A stretch of 64,000 nucleotides of DNA, from NCBI RefSeq assembly GCF_988243305.1, contig NZ_OZ547136.1, one strand, 5' to 3'. This document shows, one piece after another, positions 2,497 to 19,404 of the stretch. The translations under genes and the position numbers were made by a program. The notes under the pieces are model-generated. The model did not search any database, was not told where the DNA came from, and saw only the letters and a program-made list of their open reading frames with translations. Position 1 is the first letter of the stretch; every line of letters starts with the position of its first letter.

Positions 2497-3020
2497 TGAA
2501 CTGCACCCCAAATGTTGGACATAATCTGACATCTGAAGGTGCAGTTTATGAAACATTCATTTGAAGTAAAACTTGCCGCTGTAAATCATTACCTGGCCGG
2601 TCATGCTGGCATCATTTCTACGGCAAAACTCTTTCAACTTTCTCACACCAGCCTCTCACACTGGATTAATCTTTTTCTTCTTCACGGTCCTCGGGCACTG
2701 GATTGCAGACACAGGCGTAGCTATTCTCCTGAAGATAAACTTTGCGTGGTTCTTTATGCTCTCGGGCATTCTGAGTCTCTACCCCGGGTAGCTGCCCGGT
2801 TTAACATTCCCAGCCACAACACGGTTAAAAACTGGATAAAAGGCTACCGCAAATCTGGTGATGAGGCCTTTATCAGGCGCAGGAAGGAGAAAAGCATGAC
2901 CCGTTCTGATGATACCCATGAAAACGAGGCAAACATGACGCCGGAAGAGATGAAGAATGAGCTGCGTTATCTTCGCGCAGAAAATGCATATCTGAAAGCC
3001 ATGCAGGAGCATCTCCTGGA

Positions 3021-3026
3021 AAAAAA

Positions 3027-3027
<1 letters not shown>
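3021..3027 (+). promoter_or_regulatory. -1 programmed ribosomal frameshift heptamer A_AAA_AAG (orfA to orfB)
   Basis: In the orfA frame the codons are GAA AAA AAG (3019-3027). The -1 frame is open from 3027 (GCG CCA GGA ...) straight into the track ORF 3174..3896, with no stop. Confidence 0.8.
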
Positions 3028-3928
<901 letters not shown>

Positions 3929-3946
3929 ATCAGCGTCGCATCAGGC
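3929..3946. repeat. REP/palindromic-unit right arm (continuation of 2479..2496); a further REP follows to ~3994
   Basis: ATCAGCGTCGCATCAGGC is complementary to the left arm. GCCGGATGCGGCGTAAACGCCTTATCCTGCCTAC downstream is a second REP-like unit (BIME). Confidence 0.8.
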
Positions 3947-4004
3947 ATCCTGCTCAAATGCCGGATGCGGCGTAAACGCCTTATCCTGCCTACAAATGCG
4001 GAGT

Positions 4005-5378
4005 TTAACTCCGCTTATACAGCGGCAACCAAATCACCAGCCGTAAACCGCCCAGCGGGCTGTCTTCCGCTTTAACCCAGCCACGATGCTGCTGAATGGC
4101 GGTTTCAACAATCGCCAGCCCCAAACCTGTACCGCCAGATTCACGATCGCGTGCTTCATCGGTCCGATAGAACGGACGGAAAATCTGTTCGCGATCTTCC
4201 GGGCTAACGCCAGGACCATCGTCGTCCACCGTAATGGTGATACCGTCTTTATCTACCGCAAAGCCCACTTCAATCTTCGTATGGGAATAACGCAGAGCAT
4301 TACGAACAATGTTTTCCAGCGCACTTTCCAGGGCGTTCGGATTGCCGTACAGCGGCCACGGCCCAGGCGGGAAGTTAACCATCAACGACTTGCCCATCTG
4401 CTCGGCTTCGAACGCCGCGTTATCCAGCACTTCGCCCCACAACTGGTTAGCTTTCAATGTCTCGCTTACCAGCGCGTTTTTCTGCTGATTACGTGACATC
4501 ACCAACAGATCGTTAATCATGCTGTCCAGACGTTGCGCTTCGGTTTCAATACGCTCCAGTTCCTTGCTTTCACCGCTACGACGGCGCAGTAACGCCGTAC
4601 CCAGTTGCAGACGCGTCAGCGGGGTGCGCAGCTCGTGAGAGATATCAGAAAGTAGACGCTGCTGAGAGGTCATCATGCGCTCCAGCGCGGTGACCATCTG
4701 GTTAAAACTGGCACCTGCGGCAAGGAATTCCTGTGGCCCCGCTTCCAGTTCCGGGTGCTGGCGTAAGTTTCCCTGGGCAACTTCATCGGCAGCGTTTTTC
4801 AGCTTACGCGCCGGTTTTGCCAGACTCCAGGCCAACCACAACAGCAACGGCGTACTGACCAGCATGGTGACAATCAGCAGTAATAGCGGGCGGTCAAACA
4901 GTAAGTTAATGAAATCGGATTGAGAACTGCTGGCCGGACGAATCAGATAAAGTTGGTAATTATCTTCGCCATCACGCACGGAGAACGGACCGACCAGTTC
5001 CACGCGCCCATACTTTTTCTTCTGCGGATGATCGGCGTTATCGGCCTGACCAATAAAGTTACGAATGATCTGCATTTCGCTGCGTTCAGCGCCGATCACG
5101 CGGCCTTCGGTGGTCACCAATAACAAACGCTGTCCTGGCGGTGCCCACTTATCAATCGCCCGGAACAGACGCCGCCACCACATTAAATCATTGGGCGGAT
5201 CGTTCGCCAGCTCCGCTTCGACATGCTGCTCAATCATCAGACCCTGACGCTGTTCGCTATCCAGAAGCTCGGTCATCTGGCGTGAATCGAGCTTGGGTAA
5301 CATCAAAACCAACATCAACACCAGCGCCAGCGTCAGCCAGAAGATGGCGAAGATGCGCGCGGTTAAGCTGCCTATCAT
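4005..5378 (-). CDS. cpxA: envelope-stress sensor histidine kinase CpxA
   Basis: Track ORF of 457 aa. Two TM segments, HAMP, the H-box SHELRTPLTRL, and an ATPase G-box DDDGPGV...GTGLGLAIV. Confidence 0.97.
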   Translation of the reverse strand: MIGSLTARIFAIFWLTLALVLMLVLMLPKLDSRQMTELLDSEQRQGLMIEQHVEAELANDPPNDLMWWRRLFRAIDKWAPPGQRLLLVTTEGRVIGAERSEMQIIRNFIGQADNADHPQKKKYGRVELVGPFSVRDGEDNYQLYLIRPASSSQSDFINLLFDRPLLLLIVTMLVSTPLLLWLAWSLAKPARKLKNAADEVAQGNLRQHPELEAGPQEFLAAGASFNQMVTALERMMTSQQRLLSDISHELRTPLTRLQLGTALLRRRSGESKELERIETEAQRLDSMINDLLVMSRNQQKNALVSETLKANQLWGEVLDNAAFEAEQMGKSLMVNFPPGPWPLYGNPNALESALENIVRNALRYSHTKIEVGFAVDKDGITITVDDDGPGVSPEDREQIFRPFYRTDEARDRESGGTGLGLAIVETAIQQHRGWVKAEDSPLGGLRLVIWLPLYKRS

Positions 5379-6073
5379 GAAGCAGAAACCATCAGATAGC
5401 CGCGACCACGCAAGGTTTTAAACCACGGGTGACCATCTTTACGATCCGGCAGTTTACGACGCAGGTTGGAAATGTGCATATCGATAGCGCGGTCGAAAGG
5501 CGTCAGACGTTTGCCCAGCACTTCCTGGCTTAAATGTTCACGGGAAACCACCTGACCCAGATGCTGTGCCAGCAAATAGAGCAGGGTAAACTCAGTACCG
5601 GTTAACTCCAGCGTTTGCCCGTCGAAGCTGGCTTCCTGACGGCCTGGATTCAGCACTAAGGCATCAACTTCCAGTGTCGGTGAACCGTTGTCGTTGTTTT
5701 GCTGTTGCTCGCTCCAGTGCGAACGGCGCAGGATCGCGCGAATACGTGCCACCAGCTCACGATCATTAAACGGTTTCGGGAGATAGTCATCTGCGCCCAG
5801 CTCAAGGCCGAGAACGCGATCAAGTTCACTGCCGCGCGCCGTCAACATAATGACAGGCGTCTGGTGTGTCTGGCGAAGTGCTTTTAATGTGTCGATACCA
5901 TTTTTCTTCGGCATCATTACATCAAGCAAAAGTAAATCAATGCTGTCGTCCAGAAGATCAAGCGCCTGTTCCCCATCGTGGGCAACAATCACATTGAAGC
6001 CTTCCATCTCGAGCAGCTCCTTTAATAGGGAAGTCAGCTCTCGGTCATCATCAACTAACAGGATTTTATTCAT
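5375..6073 (-). CDS. cpxR: response regulator CpxR (OmpR family)
   Basis: Track ORF of 232 aa starting MNKILLVDDDRELT, with a receiver domain and a winged-helix C-terminus. Overlaps the cpxA start by 4 nt. Confidence 0.97.
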   Translation of the reverse strand: MNKILLVDDDRELTSLLKELLEMEGFNVIVAHDGEQALDLLDDSIDLLLLDVMMPKKNGIDTLKALRQTHQTPVIMLTARGSELDRVLGLELGADDYLPKPFNDRELVARIRAILRRSHWSEQQQNNDNGSPTLEVDALVLNPGRQEASFDGQTLELTGTEFTLLYLLAQHLGQVVSREHLSQEVLGKRLTPFDRAIDMHISNLRRKLPDRKDGHPWFKTLRGRGYLMVSAS

Positions 6074-10146: not shown

Positions 10147-10418
10147 GTATTCGTATTGAAATTGGCGAACGTTATGTCGTTACCAGTGACAGCTTTCAGT
10201 TTATTCTCCACGAGAAAAAGAGAGCGGAAAGCGGTAAAAACGCCGGTCAGGAATGGCTGGCGGTGGTTGGTTATTACCCGAAATTAGGCCAGCTCGTTTC
10301 CGGCCTGATGCATCACGATATTCTGACCGGAAGCGCAAAATCTTTTGCTGATTTAAACGCGCAGGTTGAGCAACTCAGCAAGCGTTGTTCAGAGGCTTTT
10401 GGCTCATATGGCCGTTAA
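10143..10418 (+). CDS. hypothetical early protein (P2 orf83 position)
   Basis: 91-aa track ORF coupled to its neighbours by overlapping start and stop codons. Confidence 0.65.
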   Translation: MSIRIEIGERYVVTSDSFQFILHEKKRAESGKNAGQEWLAVVGYYPKLGQLVSGLMHHDILTGSAKSFADLNAQVEQLSKRCSEAFGSYGR

Positions 10419-12684
10419 AGCCTCCGGGCGTTTTGTCCCTCCGTCAGCATTTACCGCAGGCACCGGTAAGGCGTTTACCGGTGCTTATGCATGGAACGCG
10501 CCACGCGAGGATGTCGGGCGCGAAAGACCTCTTACACGTGACGAGATGCGTCAGGTGCAAGGTGTTTTATCCACGATTAACCGCCTGCCTTACTTTTTGC
10601 GCTCGCTGTTTACTTCACGCTATGACTACATCCGGCGCAATAAAAGCCCGGTGCACGGGTTTTATTTCCTCACATCTACTTTTCAGCGTCGTTTATGGCC
10701 GCGCATTGAGCGTGTGAATCAGCGCCATGAAATGAACACCGACGCGTCGTTGCTGTTTCTGGCAGAGCGTGACCACTATGCGCGCCTGCCGGGAATGAAT
10801 GACAAGGAGCTGAAAAAGTTTGCCGCCCGTATCTCATCGCAGCTTTTCATGATGTATGAGGAACTCTGCGATGCATGGGTTGATGCGCATGGTGAAAAAG
10901 AATCGCTGTTTACGGATGAGGCGCAGGCTCACCTGTATGGTCATGTTGCTGGCGCTGCACGTGCTTTCAATATTTCCCCGCTCTACTGGAAAAAATACCG
11001 TAAAGGACAGATGACCACGAGGCAGGCATATTCTGCCATTGCCCGCCTGTTTAACGATGAGTGGTGGATTCATCAGCTTAAAGGCCAGCGTATGCGCTGG
11101 CATGAGGCGTTACTGATAGCTGTCGGGGAGGTCAATAAAGACCGTTCTCCTTATGCCAGTAAACACGCCATTCGTGATGTGCGTGCGCGCCGCCAGGCAA
11201 ATCTGGAATTTCTTAAATCGTGTGACCTTGAAAACAGGGAAACCGGCGAGCGCATCGACCTTATCAGTAAGGTGATGGGCAGTATTTCTAATCCTGAAAT
11301 TCGCCGGATGGAGCTGATGAACACCATTGCCGGTATTGAGCGTTACGCCGCCGCAGAGGGTGATGTGGGGATGTTTATCACGCTGACCGCGCCGTCAAAG
11401 TATCACCCGACACGTCAGGTCGGAAAAGGCGAAAGTAAAACCGTTCAGCTTAATCACGGCTGGAACGATGAGGCATTTAATCCAAAGGATGCGCAGCGTT
11501 ATCTCTGCCGTATCTGGAGCCTGATGCGCACGGCATTCAAGGATAATGATTTACAGGTCTACGGTTTGCGAGTCGTCGAGCCACACCACGACGGAACGCC
11601 GCACTGGCATATGATGCTTTTTTGTCATCCACGCCAGCGTAACCAGATTATCGAAATCATGCGTCGCTATGCGCTCAAAGAGGATGGCGACGAAAGAGGA
11701 GCCGCGCGAAACCGTTTTCAGGCAAAACACCTTAACCGGGGCGGTGCTGCGGGATATATCGCGAAATACATTTCAAAAAACATCGACGGCTATGCACTGG
11801 ATGGTCAGCTCGATAACGACACCGGCAGGCCGCTGAAAGACACTGCAGCGGCTGTTACCGCATGGGCGTCAACGTGGCGCATTCCGCAATTTAAAACGGT
11901 TGGCCTGCCGACAATGGGGGCTTACCGTGAACTACGCAAATTGCCTCGCGGCGTCAGCATTGCTGATGAGTTTGACGAGCGCGTCGAGGCTGCACGCGCC
12001 GCCGCAGACGGTGGTGATTTTGCGCTGTATATCAGCGCGCAGGGCGGGGCAAATGTCCCGCGCGATTGTCAGACTGTCAGGGTCGCCCGTAGTCTGTCGG
12101 ATGACGTTAACGAGTACGAGGAAGAAGTCGAGAGAGTGGTCGGCATTTACGCGCCGCATCTCGGCGCGCGTCATATTCATATCACCAGAACGACGGACTG
12201 GCGCATTGTGCCGAAAGTTCCGGTCGTTGAGCCTTTGACTTTAAAAAGCGGCATCGCCGCGCCTCGGAGTCCTGTCAATAACTGTGGAAAGCTCACCGGT
12301 GGTGATACTTCGTTACCGGCTCCCACACCTTCTGAGCACGCCGCAGCAGTGCTTAATCTGGTTGATGACGATGTTATCGAATGGAATGACCCGGAGGTCG
12401 TGAGGGCGCTCAGGGGCGCATTAAAACACGACCGGAGAACGCCAAACCGTCAGCAAAGAAACGGAAGCCCGTTAAAACCGCATGAAATTGCACCATCGGC
12501 CAGACTGACCCGGTCGGAACGATTGCAAATTACCCGTATCCGCGTTGATCTCGCTCAGAACGGTATCAGGCCGCAACGATGGGAGCTTGAGGCGCTGGCG
12601 CGTGGCGCGACCGTAAATTATGACGGGAAACCTTTCACTTATCAGGTCGCTGATGATTGGCCGGGATTTTTGTTACCCATTTGA
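10408..12684 (+). CDS. A: P2 A-like rolling-circle replication initiation endonuclease
   Basis: Track ORF 10366..12684. The P2 gpA N-terminus MAVKASGRFVPPSAF starts at 10408. Contains the HUH-type motif EPHHDGTPHWHMMLF and the active-site YIAKYISK tyrosines. Confidence 0.93.
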   Translation: MAVKASGRFVPPSAFTAGTGKAFTGAYAWNAPREDVGRERPLTRDEMRQVQGVLSTINRLPYFLRSLFTSRYDYIRRNKSPVHGFYFLTSTFQRRLWPRIERVNQRHEMNTDASLLFLAERDHYARLPGMNDKELKKFAARISSQLFMMYEELCDAWVDAHGEKESLFTDEAQAHLYGHVAGAARAFNISPLYWKKYRKGQMTTRQAYSAIARLFNDEWWIHQLKGQRMRWHEALLIAVGEVNKDRSPYASKHAIRDVRARRQANLEFLKSCDLENRETGERIDLISKVMGSISNPEIRRMELMNTIAGIERYAAAEGDVGMFITLTAPSKYHPTRQVGKGESKTVQLNHGWNDEAFNPKDAQRYLCRIWSLMRTAFKDNDLQVYGLRVVEPHHDGTPHWHMMLFCHPRQRNQIIEIMRRYALKEDGDERGAARNRFQAKHLNRGGAAGYIAKYISKNIDGYALDGQLDNDTGRPLKDTAAAVTAWASTWRIPQFKTVGLPTMGAYRELRKLPRGVSIADEFDERVEAARAAADGGDFALYISAQGGANVPRDCQTVRVARSLSDDVNEYEEEVERVVGIYAPHLGARHIHITRTTDWRIVPKVPVVEPLTLKSGIAAPRSPVNNCGKLTGGDTSLPAPTPSEHAAAVLNLVDDDVIEWNDPEVVRALRGALKHDRRTPNRQQRNGSPLKPHEIAPSARLTRSERLQITRIRVDLAQNGIRPQRWELEALARGATVNYDGKPFTYQVADDWPGFLLPI

Positions 12685-12943
12685 GTAAAAATACAGCGTG
12701 ATTTTATATGTCTTTGAATGGATTATGCGAAACACCTCTAAGGTAGATGAGGAGCAATAGCGTGTTGAATCAGAAGGCTAAATTGTATTGAATCGTTAGC
12801 ATGTAATTGAAGGCAGCTATTTGATTCGAGTCATAAAAGAGCATCTATTTCGGTTAATAAAACCATTGCGAGTGACTTTATGTCGAAGCATAATTCATCT
12901 CGAGCGAAGTCTTGCTAGTCTTTCATCGGATTGATGACGGGCG

Positions 12944-12975
12944 CAAAAAAACCACCCTGGCAGGTGGTTTTTTTG
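12944..12975. terminator. bidirectional intrinsic terminator
   Basis: A7-ACCACC-ctggca-GGTGGT-T7. The A-run and T-run flank the stem, so it can terminate transcription from either side. Confidence 0.75.
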
Positions 12976-12986
12976 TTTGAAGCATA

Positions 12987-13100
12987 CTAAAGAAAAATAC
13001 TTACATGGATATTACTGACGTTTACTGACAAACCACTCGGACTACCATATGGATAGCCAAAGAGGGCCAGAACGAGAATGCAGTAATAGCACTTCTTCAT
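12987..13100 (-). CDS. 37-codon hydrophobic mini-ORF (candidate small membrane/toxic peptide)
   Basis: Below the track's length cut-off. The minus strand reads AGGAGG-cgat-ATG AAG AAG TGC TAT TAC TGC ATT CTC GTT CTG GCC CTC TTT GGC ... TAG, giving MKKCYYCILVLALFGYPYGSPSGLSVNVSNIHVSIFL. The bidirectional terminator lies 12 nt after its stop. Confidence 0.45.
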   Translation of the reverse strand: MKKCYYCILVLALFGYPYGSPSGLSVNVSNIHVSIFL

Positions 13101-13822
13101 ATCGCCTCCTGTAAGCAGAGGGCAATTTCCGCCGATATATGCGCTTCTAAGGCGGAGTGACTATTGAGCGAAGTCTTGCCCTGAAATAATGCTCTGTTTA
13201 AACGCAAAGTGATCTGGCATATCACCGAACAGAGGACCTGAACAACACAACATATAGTATGTCGTTGTTTCTGGTTGCATTTTATGTTGTGTAATACTGG
13301 TTTTGCATCAAGGATGTTTGAGCTTTTTTTGATATAGCTCAAAGTAAAAAGCAGAGACTACGGATGATAAGGTCTTGAAAGCAATGTAAATTTTTTAAAG
13401 TTGTGAGTGGCTAGAAATGCACAGTTTCAATATGGCGGATTTAAACAAGTAATTAAAAATAGCGACACAAATTCCAATAAAATCATTAAGTTGCGTTTTC
13501 TGTGGAAACTTCGGTGACTCTGAAATTTTCTTTTAGTATCGCTGAGGTTTAACAACTCGCTGCGCAAGTAGTTAGTGTTTTTTTTAACTCAATATTCTGA
13601 TTTATAAGGTTTTTTATAAATCGTGGGCTGGTTGCGCATATTCATCTCGTGTTATCAGCAAAGATAAGCTCTATATGCAGAACTGAATGCATATATGATG
13701 TCGAAAATGTTATGGGAAAACGTGGATTAGTGTTATAGTAATGGCTGAAAAACAGCCTTGACATAAAATAACAACTGTGATATGGCTGTGCATACTTAAC
13801 TTTTTTAACGTAGGAGGCAACC

Positions 13823-14308
13823 ATGAGCTATGCAGCTAAAAAACTGCTTGACCGCTATTGGGATCGCCGACTACCTGTCGATCCGTTTAAGCTTGCTAAA
13901 GCGTGGGGTGCTCGTGTTGAAGCACTTGAGGAATCGGCTTATAACAACGATGGGTTAAGCGGTCTGGCTGTCATCAAAAAGGGTGTCCATAGGATTTATT
14001 TTGATTCTAGTGAACATTCTAATCGTCAACGTTTTACTGTTGCACACGAGTTAGGTCATCATGTGCTGGGGCATACCCAGGACGGAGAGTACCATCGGGA
14101 TAATGTCGGGAATTATTCAACAGGTGCTCGTGATTACCGTGAGGTTGAAGCAAACAAGTTTGCTGCTGAGTTGTTAATGCCTGAGTCTGCTATACGTCAA
14201 TTGGTATCCAGAGAAGGTATTGATAGCACTTTGAGATTAGCAAGCATCTTTAATGTATCAGAAGCCGCTATGCATTGGCGCTTAAAGAGCTTAGGAATGG
14301 CTTATTAA
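13823..14308 (+). CDS. ImmA/IrrE-family (Peptidase_M78/DUF955) zinc metallopeptidase
   Basis: 161-aa track ORF with AGGAGG 5 nt upstream. HEXXH motif in FTVAHELGHHVLGH, followed by EVEANKFAAELLMPE, the characteristic third-ligand/helix block of the family. Confidence 0.85.
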   Translation: MSYAAKKLLDRYWDRRLPVDPFKLAKAWGARVEALEESAYNNDGLSGLAVIKKGVHRIYFDSSEHSNRQRFTVAHELGHHVLGHTQDGEYHRDNVGNYSTGARDYREVEANKFAAELLMPESAIRQLVSREGIDSTLRLASIFNVSEAAMHWRLKSLGMAY

Positions 14309-14335
14309 TTAGCCTTTAACTTTTAACCTGTTTAA

Positions 14336-14374
14336 AATCACCTTTACGTTTGTACATGTAAGGGTGATTTTTTT
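14336..14374 (+). terminator. hairpin plus T7 between the peptidase gene and the 2-TM gene (terminator/attenuator that covers the downstream RBS)
   Basis: AATCACCTTTA (14336-14346) pairs with TAAGGGTGATT (14359-14369) over 11 bp, including one G-U. T7 runs directly into ATG 14375. The 3' arm contains the only SD-like AAGGGTGA for the next gene. Confidence 0.6.
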
Positions 14375-14974
14375 ATGGCTGATATTGATTTATCTGGACA
14401 GTCCCCAGAGCAAGGAACCACTCCTAAGGGCGATTTAGATCCTGATATCCTTATAAGGCGAGATAGACGGGATGGTATAGAGCGTAGAAGTATGCGATTA
14501 GTGCTCTCTGCCGTTGTGCTTTGTTTTGCTTGTACATTTCTATGGCAGGGGCTTAACTTTGCTTTGGCTGTTGGAAATGGCTTGCTGGAAGCGAAAAGCA
14601 GTATTGCCGCAGCGATAACACAAAAAGTAGATACACAAACTTGTGTTTCAGCAGAAAAATGTTCTGCTTTATCTTCGGATCCGAAGATGGCTGATGAGAG
14701 GATAACACCATCTTCAGACACTAATAAAGTTAGAAAATCTATTTCTGGTTTATCCACCGATTGGTTATCGGCCAGTTCTCTAATAGCTATTGTTGCATTC
14801 ATCCTTGGTGTGGGTTTAACTTTGCTTTTGACTCTTCTTAAATCAGCATTTCAACACCCGACAGATAAAGACTTTAGAACAAAGTCGACATCTAATACTA
14901 TTGAGTTGGCCACGCCAATCAGTGAATTAATAATTGGTGTTCTGAATATAATTAAAGACAAACTATCTAAGTAA
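14375..14974 (+). CDS. hypothetical two-transmembrane-helix protein
   Basis: 199-aa track ORF. Charged N-terminus, then hydrophobic helices LVLSAVVLCFACTFLWQGLNFALAV and LIAIVAFILGVGLTLLLTLL. I recognise no family. Confidence 0.65.
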   Translation: MADIDLSGQSPEQGTTPKGDLDPDILIRRDRRDGIERRSMRLVLSAVVLCFACTFLWQGLNFALAVGNGLLEAKSSIAAAITQKVDTQTCVSAEKCSALSSDPKMADERITPSSDTNKVRKSISGLSTDWLSASSLIAIVAFILGVGLTLLLTLLKSAFQHPTDKDFRTKSTSNTIELATPISELIIGVLNIIKDKLSK

Positions 14975-15016
14975 AGCATTAGTTGTGATTTTTTATTGGT
15001 TTTAGTGATAATACAT

Positions 15017-15049
15017 CTCCAGTACTTATTGTTACTGGAGAGTATTTTT
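15017..15049. terminator. hairpin between convergent genes
   Basis: CTCCAGTA-cttattgt-TACTGGAG followed by agTATTTTT. Lies between the stops at 14974 (+) and 15057 (-). Confidence 0.65.
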
Positions 15050-15056
15050 AGTCGTT

Positions 15057-15998
15057 TTATATTTTTAATGTTAGTGAATGATATTCACGAGAGTTCACGT
15101 TCGATGTGATGTAATCGGGGGCGTTAACACCAAGAATCGCAACGAGTAATCGGCAAATTAAAGCCTGCATTTGTTGTAATATGTCATCTCCATATTGATA
15201 ATTGTTAATAGTGGTAAAGCCAAGTGGTTGACCATGAAACATAGCTTCATGAAAGTTTTCATTGCGGATGTTTGTAATGTTTTTTTTACCTGTAACCCAT
15301 GATGGTCGTGGTATTCCATAAGTTTTGCAGATCCACTTCAAGCGCCTGGAGTGATTTAGAGTCTTTTCTGTACACTTGTTCTTTTCTGCCCATGTTAAAG
15401 CAAAGCAACTATCCAGTGCCATATAAAGATACTGGAATTTTTCGAAGCTAAGGTATTGTGGGTTTTGGGATAAAAATAGTGCATGCACTATTGCTGCTAT
15501 ATTTATTGGTGCGTGTTTGGTTTTTGTCTCGCTAGACATGTATTTGAGTGCTAATTCTATAACCTCTTTTTCAGAGCACTTGACCAGAATAAAGTCAGTT
15601 AATTTGCTGGGTTTTATTGGGGTTGCGTCTAAAAAACCGGCATCAGTAGTTGTTAATCTTATCCCTTTGAAAAAAGACAGACACCACACAGCAAAATTGA
15701 GAGTTTCTAGTGAAGATGTATTTTTTAATTTTAGTGAGTGTGTTTTGGGTAAGCCAAATACTCGTTGGCTAAAAGGCATTGTGGATATGCCTCCATTGAG
15801 GTTATATACTTCTTGGTTTCCTGGGTATATCCAACCGTTAATAACATTTCTGTGATTGTTTATAAGATTTGTTTTTTCCGCTAGACCGGGTAAAGTAAGT
15901 AAAGAAAAATCATCAGTTTCAACGTTAACTTCTACTGGATAGTATCCAAACTCAGCTTCAATATCATTGGATTGCTGTTCGTCAACTTTACCTTGCAT
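15057..15998 (-). CDS. hypothetical 313-aa protein with a C-terminal HEPN-like RNxxxH motif (candidate abortive-infection RNase)
   Basis: Track ORF with GGAG 8 nt upstream of the ATG. The codons CGC AAT GAA AAC TTT CAT at 15266..15249 encode RNENFH (R245-H250) in a predicted helical C-terminal region. AT-rich codon usage unlike the rest of the prophage. Confidence 0.6.
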   Translation of the reverse strand: MQGKVDEQQSNDIEAEFGYYPVEVNVETDDFSLLTLPGLAEKTNLINNHRNVINGWIYPGNQEVYNLNGGISTMPFSQRVFGLPKTHSLKLKNTSSLETLNFAVWCLSFFKGIRLTTTDAGFLDATPIKPSKLTDFILVKCSEKEVIELALKYMSSETKTKHAPINIAAIVHALFLSQNPQYLSFEKFQYLYMALDSCFALTWAEKNKCTEKTLNHSRRLKWICKTYGIPRPSWVTGKKNITNIRNENFHEAMFHGQPLGFTTINNYQYGDDILQQMQALICRLLVAILGVNAPDYITSNVNSREYHSLTLKI

Positions 15999-16236
15999 AC
16001 ATTGCTCCGGTCAAAAATAGGCTCGATAATTCTCGTAAGCCTATCATGTTCGCAAAGTATCCATACCTGTGGATTTTGTAAATTTAAGTTGATTTGTCAT
16101 TAAATAAGCCGTTGCATGCAACAAGTGAATGTTTTTGCATGCGTCGGGGATGTCCGTTCAGGCTGCGTGCGGTCAGGACTGGTGCGGATCCATAGTATCT
16201 ATGCAACTGCATTAAAACCGCCCCATGAAGCGGGCG

Positions 16237-16255
16237 GGCGAGGCGGGGAAAGCAC
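16237..16255 (+). other. cos: P2 cos cohesive-end sequence (19 nt)
   Basis: GGCGAGGCGGGGAAAGCAC is an exact match to my recollection of the P2 cohesive end. It is located just upstream of the Q/P packaging genes, as in P2. Confidence 0.85.
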
Positions 16256-16424: not shown

Positions 16425-17459
16425 TCAGCCGTTGTCGGTGTCCAGTGAGTAGTTTTTAAAGCGGATGACCTCCTGACCGAGCCAGCCGTTTATCTCGCGG
16501 ATCCTGTCCTGTAACGGGATAAGCTCATTGCGGACAAAGACCTTTGCCACTTTCTCAATATCACCCAGCGACCCGACGTTCTCCGGCTTGCCGCCCATCA
16601 ACTGAAAAGGGATGCGGTGCGCGTCCAGCAGGTCTGCGGCGCTGGCTTTTTTGATATTAAAAAAATCGTCCTTCGTTGCCACTTCACTGAGCGGGATAAT
16701 TTTAATGCCGTCGGCTTTCCCTTGCGGGGCATAGAGAAACAGATTTTTAAAGTTGTTGCGGCCTTTCGACTTCACCATGTTTTCGCGGAGCATTTCGATA
16801 TCGTTGCGATCCTGCACGGCATCAGTGACGTACATGATGTATCCGGCATGTGCGCCGTTTTCGTAATACTTGCGGCGGAACAGCGTGGCCGACTCATTCA
16901 GCCAGGCAGAGTTAAGGGCGCTGAGATATTCCGGCAGGCCATACAGCTCCTGATTAATATCCGGCTCCAGCAGGTGAAACACGGAGCCGGGCGCGAAAGG
17001 TGTCGGCTCATGGAAGGACGGCACCCACCAGTAAACATCCTCTTCCACGCCACGGCGGGTATATTTTGCCGGTGAGGTTTCCAGTCTGATGACCTTACCG
17101 GTGGTGCTGTAACGCTTTTCCAGAAACGCATTACCGAACACCAGAAAATCCAGCACAAAGCGGCTGAAATCCTGCTGGGAAAGCCACGGGTGCGGAATAA
17201 ACGTTGAAGCCAGAATATTACGTTTGACGTAAATCGGTGAGCTGTGATGTACGGCAGCACGCAGGCTTTTTGCCAGACCGGTAAAGCTGACCGGTGGCTC
17301 ATACCATCTGCCGTTACTGATGCACTCGACGTAATCCAGAATGTCACGGCGGTCGAGTACCGGCACCGGTTCACCAAAGGTGAATGCCTCCATTTTCGGG
17401 GCGCTGGCGGTCATTTTTTTTGCCGCAGGTTGCGGTGTTTTCCCTTTTTTCTTGCTCAT
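16425..17459 (-). CDS. Q: portal protein
   Basis: 344-aa track ORF, the same length and position as P2 gpQ. Adjacent to cos and coupled to P. Confidence 0.93.
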   Translation of the reverse strand: MSKKKGKTPQPAAKKMTASAPKMEAFTFGEPVPVLDRRDILDYVECISNGRWYEPPVSFTGLAKSLRAAVHHSSPIYVKRNILASTFIPHPWLSQQDFSRFVLDFLVFGNAFLEKRYSTTGKVIRLETSPAKYTRRGVEEDVYWWVPSFHEPTPFAPGSVFHLLEPDINQELYGLPEYLSALNSAWLNESATLFRRKYYENGAHAGYIMYVTDAVQDRNDIEMLRENMVKSKGRNNFKNLFLYAPQGKADGIKIIPLSEVATKDDFFNIKKASAADLLDAHRIPFQLMGGKPENVGSLGDIEKVAKVFVRNELIPLQDRIREINGWLGQEVIRFKNYSLDTDNG

Positions 17460-19231
17460 TAGTAAAACTCCAGAATGGTGGATGTCAGCGGGGTGCTGAT
17501 ACCGGCGGTGAGTGGCTCATTTAACAGGGCGTGCATGGTCGCCCAGGCGAGATCGGCGTGGCTGGCTTCCTCGCTGCGGCTGGCCTCATAGGTGGCGCTG
17601 CGTCCGCTGCTGGTCATGGTCTTGCGGATAGCCATAAACGAGCTGGTGATGTCGGTGGCGCTGACGTCATATTCCAGACAGCCACGGCGAATAACGTCTT
17701 TTGCCTTGAGCACCATTGCGGTTTTCATTTCCGGCGTGTAGCGGATATCGCGTGCGGCGGGATAGAACGAGCGAACGAGCTGGAACACGCCGACACCGAG
17801 GCCGGTGGCATCAATTCCGATGTATTCGACGTTGTATTTTTCGGTGAGTTTGCGGATGGATTCAGCCTGGGTGGCAAAGTCCATGCCTTTCCACTGGTGA
17901 CGCTCAAGTATTCTGAATTTGCCACCGGCCACCACCGGCGGTGCCAGCACCACGCATCCGGCACTGTCGCCACGGTGTGACGGGTCGTAACCAATCCAGA
18001 CCGGGCGGGAGCCGAACGGATTCGCGGCAAACGGCGCATAGTCTTCCCATTCTTCCAGCGTGTCGACCATGCAGCGTTGCAGCTCCTCGAACGGGAACAC
18101 CGACGCCTTGTCGTCAACAAATTCACACATGAACAGGTTTTTAAAATCGTCGGCGCTGTTTTCGCGTTTAAGCTGCTCAATGTCGAACAGCGTGCAGCCA
18201 CCTTTCAGGGCGTCCTCAATGGTGACAATCTGCCGCCACTGACCGTCCGCACAGAGAAGCCCACCGGCAAGAGCGTTATGACTGACGTCGATTTCCACGC
18301 GTTCGGCGGCGCTGGCGCGTCCCCGGTTGAACAGTTCACCCGACCAGAACGGGTAGGCGTCGTGCGCCAGCGTGGACGGGGTGGAGAAATAGGTCGAGCG
18401 CAGGTGACTCTGTGAGGCCATACCTGATGCCACCTTACGCAGTACCTGAAAATTCGGTATCCAGAAAATCTCGTCGACGTACAGGTCGCCGTTATGGCTC
18501 TGCGCGGTGTTGGAGTTGGTGCCGAGAAAAATCAGTTTTGCGCCGTTATTGCCCAGGACAATTGGGTCACCGGTCAGGTCAACGTCAACCAGCCGGGCAA
18601 AGGCGATGATGTATTCGCGGAACACATACGCCTGCGTTTTACTGGCCGACAGAAAAATCTGGTTATGACCGGTTTTCAGGGCGCGCAGCAGCGCCTCGCG
18701 GGAAAAATAAAACGTCGCGCCAATCTGGCGGGATTTCAGGATATCGCGGATGCGGTGCTCAAGCCCTGCGCGATACCAGTGCAACTGATATTCGAAAGAC
18801 TGCTCAAAGAAAATCTGCTCCAGCTTTTCGATGGCCTCGTCACTGAAAAAATTCTTTTTCGGTTTGCGACGCCCGCCTTTGTTGCGGTTAGCGACGTTCG
18901 GATTAAAGTCTGCCTCGTTGCCGGTCTGACTGTAACGGTTGACCCGTGCCAGTCGTTCAATCTGGCGTCCGAGCAGGTCAATTTCCTTGAAGTCACCGCC
19001 GGTTTTCTGCGGTTTGATGATGAGCTGGGTCAGCCGCGCTTCCAGACTCATTTCGACACGGCTGATGGGGGCAACGCTGTCCCAGCCGTCGCGCTGTTTC
19101 CAGCTCTGCACCGTCGGGCGTTTCATCTGCAACATGGCGGCAATCTGCGGCACGGAAAATCCCTGCCAGTACAGCAGCGCCGCCTGACGACGCGGGTCGT
19201 GTAAAAGAGTGGTGTCTGTGGTGATGGTCAT
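17459..19231 (-). CDS. P: terminase large (ATPase) subunit
   Basis: Track ORF 17459..19261. The P2 gpP N-terminus MTITTDTTLLHDPRRQAALLYWQG starts at 19231, giving 590 aa. Confidence 0.93.
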   Translation of the reverse strand: MTITTDTTLLHDPRRQAALLYWQGFSVPQIAAMLQMKRPTVQSWKQRDGWDSVAPISRVEMSLEARLTQLIIKPQKTGGDFKEIDLLGRQIERLARVNRYSQTGNEADFNPNVANRNKGGRRKPKKNFFSDEAIEKLEQIFFEQSFEYQLHWYRAGLEHRIRDILKSRQIGATFYFSREALLRALKTGHNQIFLSASKTQAYVFREYIIAFARLVDVDLTGDPIVLGNNGAKLIFLGTNSNTAQSHNGDLYVDEIFWIPNFQVLRKVASGMASQSHLRSTYFSTPSTLAHDAYPFWSGELFNRGRASAAERVEIDVSHNALAGGLLCADGQWRQIVTIEDALKGGCTLFDIEQLKRENSADDFKNLFMCEFVDDKASVFPFEELQRCMVDTLEEWEDYAPFAANPFGSRPVWIGYDPSHRGDSAGCVVLAPPVVAGGKFRILERHQWKGMDFATQAESIRKLTEKYNVEYIGIDATGLGVGVFQLVRSFYPAARDIRYTPEMKTAMVLKAKDVIRRGCLEYDVSATDITSSFMAIRKTMTSSGRSATYEASRSEEASHADLAWATMHALLNEPLTAGISTPLTSTILEFY

Positions 19232-19404
19232 GAATACCTCGCCGTGATGAATACACGGCAAGGCTACTGAGTCGCGCCCCGCGATTCGCTAAGGTGCTGT
19301 TGTGTCAGTGATAAGCCATCCGGGACTGATGGCGGAGGATGCGCATCGTCGGGAAACTGATGCCGACATGTGACTCCTCTAATCACTATTCAGGACTCCT
19401 GACA

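Follow-up and report, generated by a model that had tools for sequence, protein, structure and literature searches.

The gene examined here, ORF313, lies in a stretch of DNA of 64,000 nucleotides from contig NZ_OZ547136.1 of the NCBI RefSeq assembly GCF_988243305.1 (hereafter, the window); the open reading frame (ORF) at 15057..15998 on the minus strand starts with ATG, encodes a protein of 313 residues, and appears in RefSeq, at the same coordinates and in E. coli DNA that is 99.8% identical, as a ‘hypothetical protein’. We propose that ORF313 is probably a single-gene anti-phage HEPN RNase. The C-terminal half of the protein reads as a divergent HEPN domain that, on the prediction set out below, is very likely catalytic; the N-terminal 140 residues form a conserved domain without a known structural relative, probably a sensor. 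The gene is carried by a P2-like prophage, next to the cos (cohesive end) site.

The conserved motif and the predicted HEPN domain

The initial annotation, made from the letters of the window, singled out the sequence R-N-E-N-F-H at residues 245–250 (15266..15249), followed by EAMFHG, and conceded that a six-residue motif by itself is weak evidence. The reading is correct and so is the concession: in 20,000 shuffles of the 313-residue protein, Rx4-6H arises in 50% and RNxxxH in 1.9%. Two palindromic motifs upstream of the gene are no more distinctive, the octamer TTGCATGC not being over-represented in the window (4 found vs 6.2 expected). Because the motif and the palindromes are at chance level when taken alone, they gain meaning only through comparison with other sequences; judged in this way, the motif is supported and the palindromes are reassigned (vide infra).

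Such a comparison is feasible with many sequences, that is, the protein is not the orphan that it had been taken to be. A word-indexed search found 603 homologues (90% clustering), and an exhaustive search with the profile gave 666 clusters at 50% identity across the Proteobacteria, of which 196 scored below an E-value of 1e-30. Nearly all of the family members are about 290–330 residues long, with both halves covered, and the longer members have no extra Pfam domain (no fusions). Every source names the family hypothetical (phrog_5937 in PHROGs, ‘function unknown’); for one 46%-identical Acinetobacter homologue, UniRef has automatically assigned the name ‘Apea-like HEPN domain-containing protein’. 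Scans with Pfam, NCBIfam, and PADLOC assigned no significant family to the window protein, to 42 close relatives, or to 63 distant relatives; specifically, PADLOC-DB v2.0.0 gave no match for the window protein and none of significance among the 63. Literature searches found no published characterization of the family, and the protein is absent from the DefensePredictor supplements. Among complete E. coli genomes, 98 of 5,426 (about 1.8%) carry the gene, always on the chromosome; in 46 of the carriers it is near-identical to that in the window and in 52 it is a variant at 60–80% DNA identity. Plasmid-borne relatives occur in Providencia, Acinetobacter, Burkholderia, and Bradyrhizobium.

An alignment of 63 relatives, with identities down to 25%, has just seven invariant columns: H87, G112, E186, R245, H250, G260, and R283. 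The Arg and His of the motif, whose retention in homologues the initial annotation had proposed as a check, are both among them, and the residue right after the Arg is polar (N246 in 60 of 63), so the family carries Rx4-6H in the form expected of HEPN proteins. In a larger set of 219 members, RNxxxH[E/D] is present in 208 and Rx4H is kept in 6 more (214/219); at least four of the five exceptions match the family profile only upstream of the motif. The relative position of the motif is also constant, at 0.77 ± 0.03 of the length (members of 270–420 residues, n = 219).

An AlphaFold2 model built on the alignment (predicted local distance difference test (pLDDT) score 83; predicted template modeling (pTM) score 0.84) consists of an α/β N-terminal domain and an all-helical C-terminal domain. 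According to DSSP, the helix formed by residues 242–247 ends in R245-N246, and H250 is located in a flexible coil before a long helix (273–288); the invariant E186 is located in another long helix (184–206), and an extra helix (216–227) precedes the motif. The HEPN definition includes a polar residue after the Arg, a conserved acidic residue in helix 2, and frequent inserts between helices 2 and 3 (PMC3710099). The position of the motif and the topology of the model are consistent with this canonical definition.

The N-terminal domain, which is modeled with confidence, is highly conserved as well: in addition to the invariant H87 and G112, residues F17, G18, P21, W56, F81, T86, F102, R114, and D135 are retained in at least 90% of the sequences, R79 in 54 of 63, and D124 in 50 of 63. 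We consider it rather unlikely, yet worth stating, that ORF313 represents a mechanistically new HEPN immune class in which this domain could be either a new infection sensor (of a small molecule, a nucleic-acid intermediate, or a phage protein) or a second catalytic center. As a separate observation, the N-terminal ~58 residues of the family profile show a weak similarity to an RyR-domain protein from Bacteroides in the PDB (E 0.17–0.5; E 0.0025 for a two-copy chimera). The Pfam RyR domain is also found in two neighbor proteins (E 1.8e-11) in the set of 23 loci described below; its agreement with the profile match may be a coincidence.

A cassette in the P2 hotspot

The window is a P2-like prophage that encodes the gpA replication endonuclease at 10366-12684, the portal protein at 16425-17459, and the terminase ATPase at 17459-19261. 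It contains the P2-type cohesive end of 19 nucleotides (GGCGAGGCGGGGAAAGCAC; Table 1); therefore, the hotspot is the cos-proximal gpA–gpQ locus, and ORF313 is a variable gene adjoining cos, with the replication gene A on one side and the portal gene Q on the other. This locus is a hotspot of anti-phage systems (1,650 arrangements in 18,150 loci); P2’s own cargo there is old and tin, and the validated cargoes include old, tin, DUF4238, DprA-PRTase, and others (Rousset et al., PMC9122126). In Table S5B of the same study, the ORF313 protein (with one residue different) is single-gene system #11, without a domain name and with 218 occurrences (PMC9122126), that is, a share of about 1% of the P2 hotspots (218/18,150). 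The protein is absent from the tables of cloned and tested systems in that study (PMC9122126). The validated ‘hp + hp + hp’ system of Rousset et al. was considered as its identity and rejected, the proteins being unrelated. The hotspot location on which the initial annotation had leaned is therefore borne out for the cassette in the window, and elsewhere the family is found in defense islands.

Three further features that had been read from the letters hold. The gene has its own GGAG ribosome-binding site (RBS), located in the same place as the RBS annotated for the homologue of P2-EC67; it is convergent with the gene for a 199-residue protein (14375..14974, plus strand); and it is AT-rich, with a GC content of 36–39% at the cassette vs 52–59% in the flanking phage backbone. 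Within the 5′ region (15999-16111), the only σ70-like site is weak (ATGACA-16-CAAAAT, 16100..16073).

On its other side, ORF313 adjoins a module composed of a 1.1-kb non-coding stretch, an ImmA/IrrE (Peptidase_M78) gene, and a gene for a protein with two transmembrane segments (2-TM). This module is present at 87% identity in Peduovirus P2 OU784750. There, its own terminator comes next and the cos repeats directly after that, with ORF313 absent. Conversely, the neighbors of ORF313 differ among P2-EC67 (where the gene is annotated ‘ORF313’), vB_EcoM-613R3, E. coli SF-468, and the window. Because the ImmA–TM module occurs without ORF313 and ORF313 occurs elsewhere with unrelated neighbors, ORF313 is an independent cassette. 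The hairpin between the convergent genes resembles an intrinsic terminator on either strand; it belongs to the ORF313 cassette, because the ImmA–TM module of OU784750 ends in a different terminator. The cassette, which spans about 1.1 kb (roughly 14,980-16,111), is self-contained and horizontally mobile, with its own 5′ region, RBS, and terminator hairpin.

The initial annotation had also noticed two GCATGC-centered motifs 23 bp apart upstream of the gene and suggested that they could be an operator. The motifs are present, as TTGCATGCAA (16112-16121) and TTGCATGCGT (16135-16144), with a spacing of 23 bp from start to start; the operator idea is rejected because P2, 186-like phages, and P4 retain the repeats next to different cargoes. 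P2-like phages without ORF313 match the window from 16113 on, that is, from the start of the first palindrome, and in an alignment the set of TGCAT repeats is found by cos in P2 (cargo old), a 186-like Yersinia phage, and Peduovirus P2 OU784750. The P4 satellite, which shares with P2 only the cos region (PMC9122126), has TGCAT repeats too (...CCATGCATCGATAAGGTGCATGGCTTTGCATGCGTTT...; P4 sequences in PMC9122126, Table S2). In P2, the mapped starts of the old-tin transcripts place the TTGAAT −35 hexamer (Pold) inside the first repeat. The alignments therefore identify the TGCAT repeats as a conserved cos-flank element rather than an ORF313-specific regulator; they may contribute a backbone promoter, a terminase/packaging signal, or both. 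Their backbone status matters for the choice of cassette boundaries when systems from the P2 hotspot are cloned with a ‘native promoter’. As a related observation, three TGCAT-containing repeats are located ~95–125 bp from the cos cut site and are kept in P2 (3440-3475), 186-like phages, and P4, whatever the cargo.

Table 1. Features of the ORF313 cassette and its flank, in positions of the window.
Feature	Position	Strand	Remark
Coding sequence, 313-residue protein	15057..15998	-	ORF313 family; phrog_5937; P2-hotspot system #11 of Rousset et al.
N-terminal α/β domain, about residues 10-140	15579..15971	-	Highly conserved; proposed sensor or regulatory domain
C-terminal all-helical domain, about residues 143-300	15099..15572	-	HEPN fold (predicted)
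Codon of invariant E186, in long second core helix	15441..15443	-	63/63; candidate HEPN helix-2 acidic residue
Predicted catalytic motif R245-N-E-N-F-H250-E251	15246..15266	-	R245 63/63, N246 60/63, H250 63/63, E251 58/63 (plus 4 D)
Ribosome-binding site GGAG	16008..16005	-	6 nt 5′ of ATG
Cassette-specific 5′ region	15999..16111	-	Conserved with ORF313 homologues of P2-EC67 and vB_EcoM-613R3
Hairpin with 9-bp stem	15016..15041	.	Just past the stop codon, between the convergent genes; free energy (dG) -17 kcal/mol, z -6.2
TGCAT repeats TTGCATGCAA ... GTGAATG ... TTGCATGCGT	16112..16144	.	First conserved cos-flank backbone sequence, outside the cassette
P2-type 19-nt cohesive end GGCGAGGCGGGGAAAGCAC	16237..16255	+	Linear P2 records begin exactly at 16237

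The adjacent module has features of its own. Positions 13823-14974 (plus strand) encode an ImmA/IrrE Peptidase_M78 protein (161 residues; PADLOC capP, E 1e-30) without an adjacent helix-turn-helix partner, followed by a membrane protein of 199 residues (phrog_8096); these correspond to system #21, which has 148 occurrences and is among the untested P2-hotspot systems of Rousset et al. For the membrane protein, their representative sequence begins 40 residues after the RefSeq start, at an internal Met (MRLVLSAV...). The AT-rich stretch of 1.1 kb between the gpA stop codon and the ImmA start codon (12685-13822) contains no ORF longer than 81 residues and no annotation. A search of the hotspot with Rfam gave nothing above the gathering scores, the best being an RNAI-like match in this stretch (27.8 bits vs a gathering score of 47). 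The stretch belongs to the ImmA–TM module because it is conserved with the module at 87% identity in OU784750; possible readings of it are a long leader, a non-coding RNA, and a decayed gene.

Genome neighborhoods and alternative explanations

The context of the family was surveyed at 23 loci. The immediate neighbors differ in every genus (10 genera); no neighbor is related to either domain, and no partner is conserved at the 23 loci. Among the 135 neighbor ORFs, strong matches to defense genes include Drt5, Hhe, Avs3, a CBASS phospholipase effector with JAB and CapP, Drt8, DpdC, MkoA, and several PADLOC candidates; strong matches to mobile-element genes include integrases, AlpA, conjugation genes, and P2- and P22-type phage genes. 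In Pseudomonas aeruginosa, a Gabija-like pair (OLD-TOPRIM ATPase and UvrD helicase) is encoded ~3 kb away, in an island with ParB and DUF932 genes. On a Burkholderia plasmid, genes for an FRG-domain protein, DUF4238 (validated by Rousset et al.), and an integrase adjoin the homologue; in Xanthomonas hortorum, an Avs3-like gene ends ~600 bp upstream; in Stenotrophomonas, a gene for a PDC-S49 KAP NTPase starts 28 bp downstream; and on an Acinetobacter plasmid, the homologue is found amid toxin-antitoxin pairs. Hypothetical proteins of ~1,100 residues without a PADLOC match also adjoin homologues (2502-5816 on the Burkholderia cenocepacia HI2424 plasmid locus; 1107-4448 at a second locus), in islands with DUF4238, FRG-domain, or integrase genes; these may be further defense genes.

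Several results weigh against an anti-phage HEPN RNase. The initial annotation had asked whether the motif is placed in a HEPN core; the location of the motif at a helix end and in the loop that follows is as in HEPN domains, but a Foldseek search of the full model against the PDB returned nothing below E 0.78. The motif segment itself (residues 246–259) has a pLDDT below 50. Among the 63 members, the Pfam HEPN models stay below significance (HEPN_Apea in 1/63, E 0.15; HEPN_RiboL-PSP in 1/63, E 0.074), profile searches of the PDB sequences found no HEPN chain, and an hhalign comparison of the family profile with a Hypoth_Ymh HEPN protein encoded in the same hotspot yielded a probability of 0.15%, which is uninformative with a single sequence. 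The neighbor survey is qualitative and without a background control. In Aeromonas (A. veronii and relatives), an AlkZ-like (PF06224) gene on the same strand precedes the homologue by ~100 bp, and the surrounding genes are ordinary chromosomal ones. Finally, the RNase activity, the toxicity, and the phage defense of ORF313 are inferred, and its RNA target and its trigger are proposed purely by analogy. With regard to the Aeromonas region, a small variable insert is found nearby, and this is the sole context seen without mobile-element or defense genes.

The alternative that survives best retains the HEPN RNase and assigns it a role other than defense: ORF313 would be a stabilization or addiction toxin, or a lysogenic-conversion factor that acts on host RNA in the control of stress or growth. 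We judge this unlikely, because no antitoxin-like partner is conserved in any lineage and a lone constitutive toxin could not be maintained; moreover, the preferred sites of the gene are validated defense hotspots and defense islands.

Less likely still is a HEPN-like fold without nuclease activity, in which case the protein would bind a ligand, serve as a scaffold, or have a regulatory role. Non-catalytic HEPN domains exist, for example those fused to nucleotidyltransferases and MtlR, and the failure of catalytic-HEPN sequence profiles to detect ORF313, together with the poor modeling of the motif region, would fit such a role. However, non-catalytic HEPN domains typically lose Rx4-6H (PMC3710099), whereas in the ORF313 family the R, the N, the H, the following acidic residue, and the Glu of helix 2 are essentially invariant over the divergence spanned by 666 clusters.

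Two other explanations are improbable, and to an equal degree. According to one, ORF313 is part of a three-gene system with the ImmA/IrrE (Peptidase_M78) protease and the 2-TM protein; the three genes are found together in the window and in 45 complete E. coli genomes, a ‘hypothetical + hypothetical + Peptidase_M78’ arrangement is listed in Table S5A of Rousset et al. (PMC9122126), and the ImmA protein resembles CapP, the protease regulator of CBASS. We reject a link because the protease–TM pair occurs without ORF313, ORF313 occurs without the pair both elsewhere among P2-like phages and in all further genera examined, and the genes converge and are separately terminated; in Table S5B of Rousset et al., the Peptidase_M78 + 2TM pair is a separate system, #21 as opposed to #11 (PMC9122126). 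According to the other, ORF313 is a counter-defense or fitness factor of P2-like phages (e.g., an RNase that acts on phage or host transcripts in the lytic cycle), as might be supposed of a phage-encoded gene next to cos, where the same backbone region drives old in P2; against this, it is non-essential cargo (98/5426 E. coli genomes; 218/18,150 P2 hotspots), and most family members are found outside P2-like phages, on plasmids and in chromosomal islands by defense genes.

For the explanation that we prefer, a single-gene anti-phage HEPN RNase, a mechanism can be proposed from established HEPN biology and from the solo-HEPN systems HepS, ApeA, DARNA, and DS-11. In this proposal, R245-N-x3-H250-E251 and E186 would form a metal-independent RNase site in the divergent HEPN domain; RNase activity of the HEPN type leaves a 2′,3′-cyclic phosphate. 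The protein would be made constitutively in the lysogen and held inactive until another phage infects and produces a cue, perceived either by the N-terminal domain or in a pocket where the two domains meet; this cue would then switch on a composite active site by dimerization of the HEPN domains. The activated enzyme would cut cellular RNA, with the anticodon loops of tRNA as the foremost candidate; by analogy with those systems tRNA is a possible target of ORF313, although we hold this assignment to be doubtful. Translation arrest and aborted infection would follow, and these would protect the lysogen population and the resident prophage.

Comparison with known systems

ORF313 shares its setting with known P2 cargoes. 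Like old, tin, and the other gpA–gpQ cargoes, it occupies the slot by cos as AT-rich, swappable cargo and, like old, it is transcribed away from the cos-flank repeats. The ORF313 cassette has been catalogued (as #11) but lies outside the systems tested by Rousset et al. The proteins also differ: OLD is an ABC ATPase–TOPRIM protein to which ORF313 is unrelated.

Among the HEPN proteins, ORF313 is none of the named families. HepT toxins are about 130–140 residues long and always paired with an MNT antitoxin. In HepT/MntA the antitoxin gene is adjacent, whereas no nucleotidyltransferase is found among the most frequent neighbor families of ORF313 (23 loci); ORF313 is therefore not a HEPN-MNT toxin-antitoxin system.

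Other HEPN systems are closer in organization. ApeA, reportedly described by Gao et al. in 2020, is a single-protein defense system with a C-terminal HEPN domain that follows non-catalytic domains, as is predicted for ORF313, and it is also a single-gene cargo of the P2 and P4 hotspots. A ligand pocket distinct from its active site activates the cleavage of tRNA anticodons (10.64898/2026.01.26.701840). However, ApeA has about 580 residues in an N-terminal, a Mid, and a split-HEPN domain and assembles into decamers or dodecamers, whereas ORF313 has 313 residues in two domains, the N-terminal one being smaller and unrelated; ORF313 thus lacks the three-domain architecture (~580 residues) of ApeA. 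The corresponding Pfam model (HEPN_Apea, PF18739) has no match to the window protein at E ≤ 1 and none among the 42 close relatives.

HepS is the HEPN Solo defense element of the Salmonella Gifsy-1 prophage and senses a siphovirus tail-tip protein (PMC13043305). It is a bare HEPN protein, with homologues restricted to fewer than 250 residues and the motif at R100-H105, whereas ORF313 has an extra N-terminal domain of 140 residues and its motif at 245–250; ORF313 does not belong to the stand-alone HEPN proteins of fewer than 250 residues, and no sequence similarity was detected between HepS and ORF313.

DARNA senses single-stranded DNA that is presented by the phage SSB and is inactive until triggered (10.64898/2026.02.22.705581); DS-11 is a CBS-HEPN protein that senses an adenine nucleotide and in which mutations of the HEPN catalytic residues ablate defense (PMC13092281). 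Both combine a HEPN RNase and a sensor in one protein, as proposed for ORF313, but their sensors are unlike the N-terminal domain of ORF313. In DARNA (456 residues), an N-terminal HEPN domain is followed by a C-terminal Pds5-like sensor of single-stranded DNA with ~300 residues, that is, the order of the domains is the reverse of that in ORF313. DARNA, ApeA, and HepS were each rejected as the identity of ORF313 on the basis of architecture.

These solo or sensor-fused HEPN proteins (HepS, ApeA, DARNA, and DS-11) are abortive-infection tRNA anticodon nucleases that remain inactive until triggered (PMC13043305; 10.64898/2026.01.26.701840; 10.64898/2026.02.22.705581; PMC13092281). ORF313 is another candidate for abortive infection by a sensor and a HEPN domain in one protein, and its new element is the N-terminal domain. 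If confirmed, this assignment would give a name and an explanation to the 11th most common cargo of the E. coli P2 defense hotspot, which belongs to a family of at least 666 clusters (50% identity) that Pfam, NCBIfam, and PADLOC have missed. With 313 residues encoded by one gene that has a putative promoter and a terminator of its own, ORF313 would be among the smallest sensor-plus-HEPN immune proteins (as predicted), with straightforward genetics and structural work, and a sensor domain without a known fold could reveal a new trigger of abortive infection.

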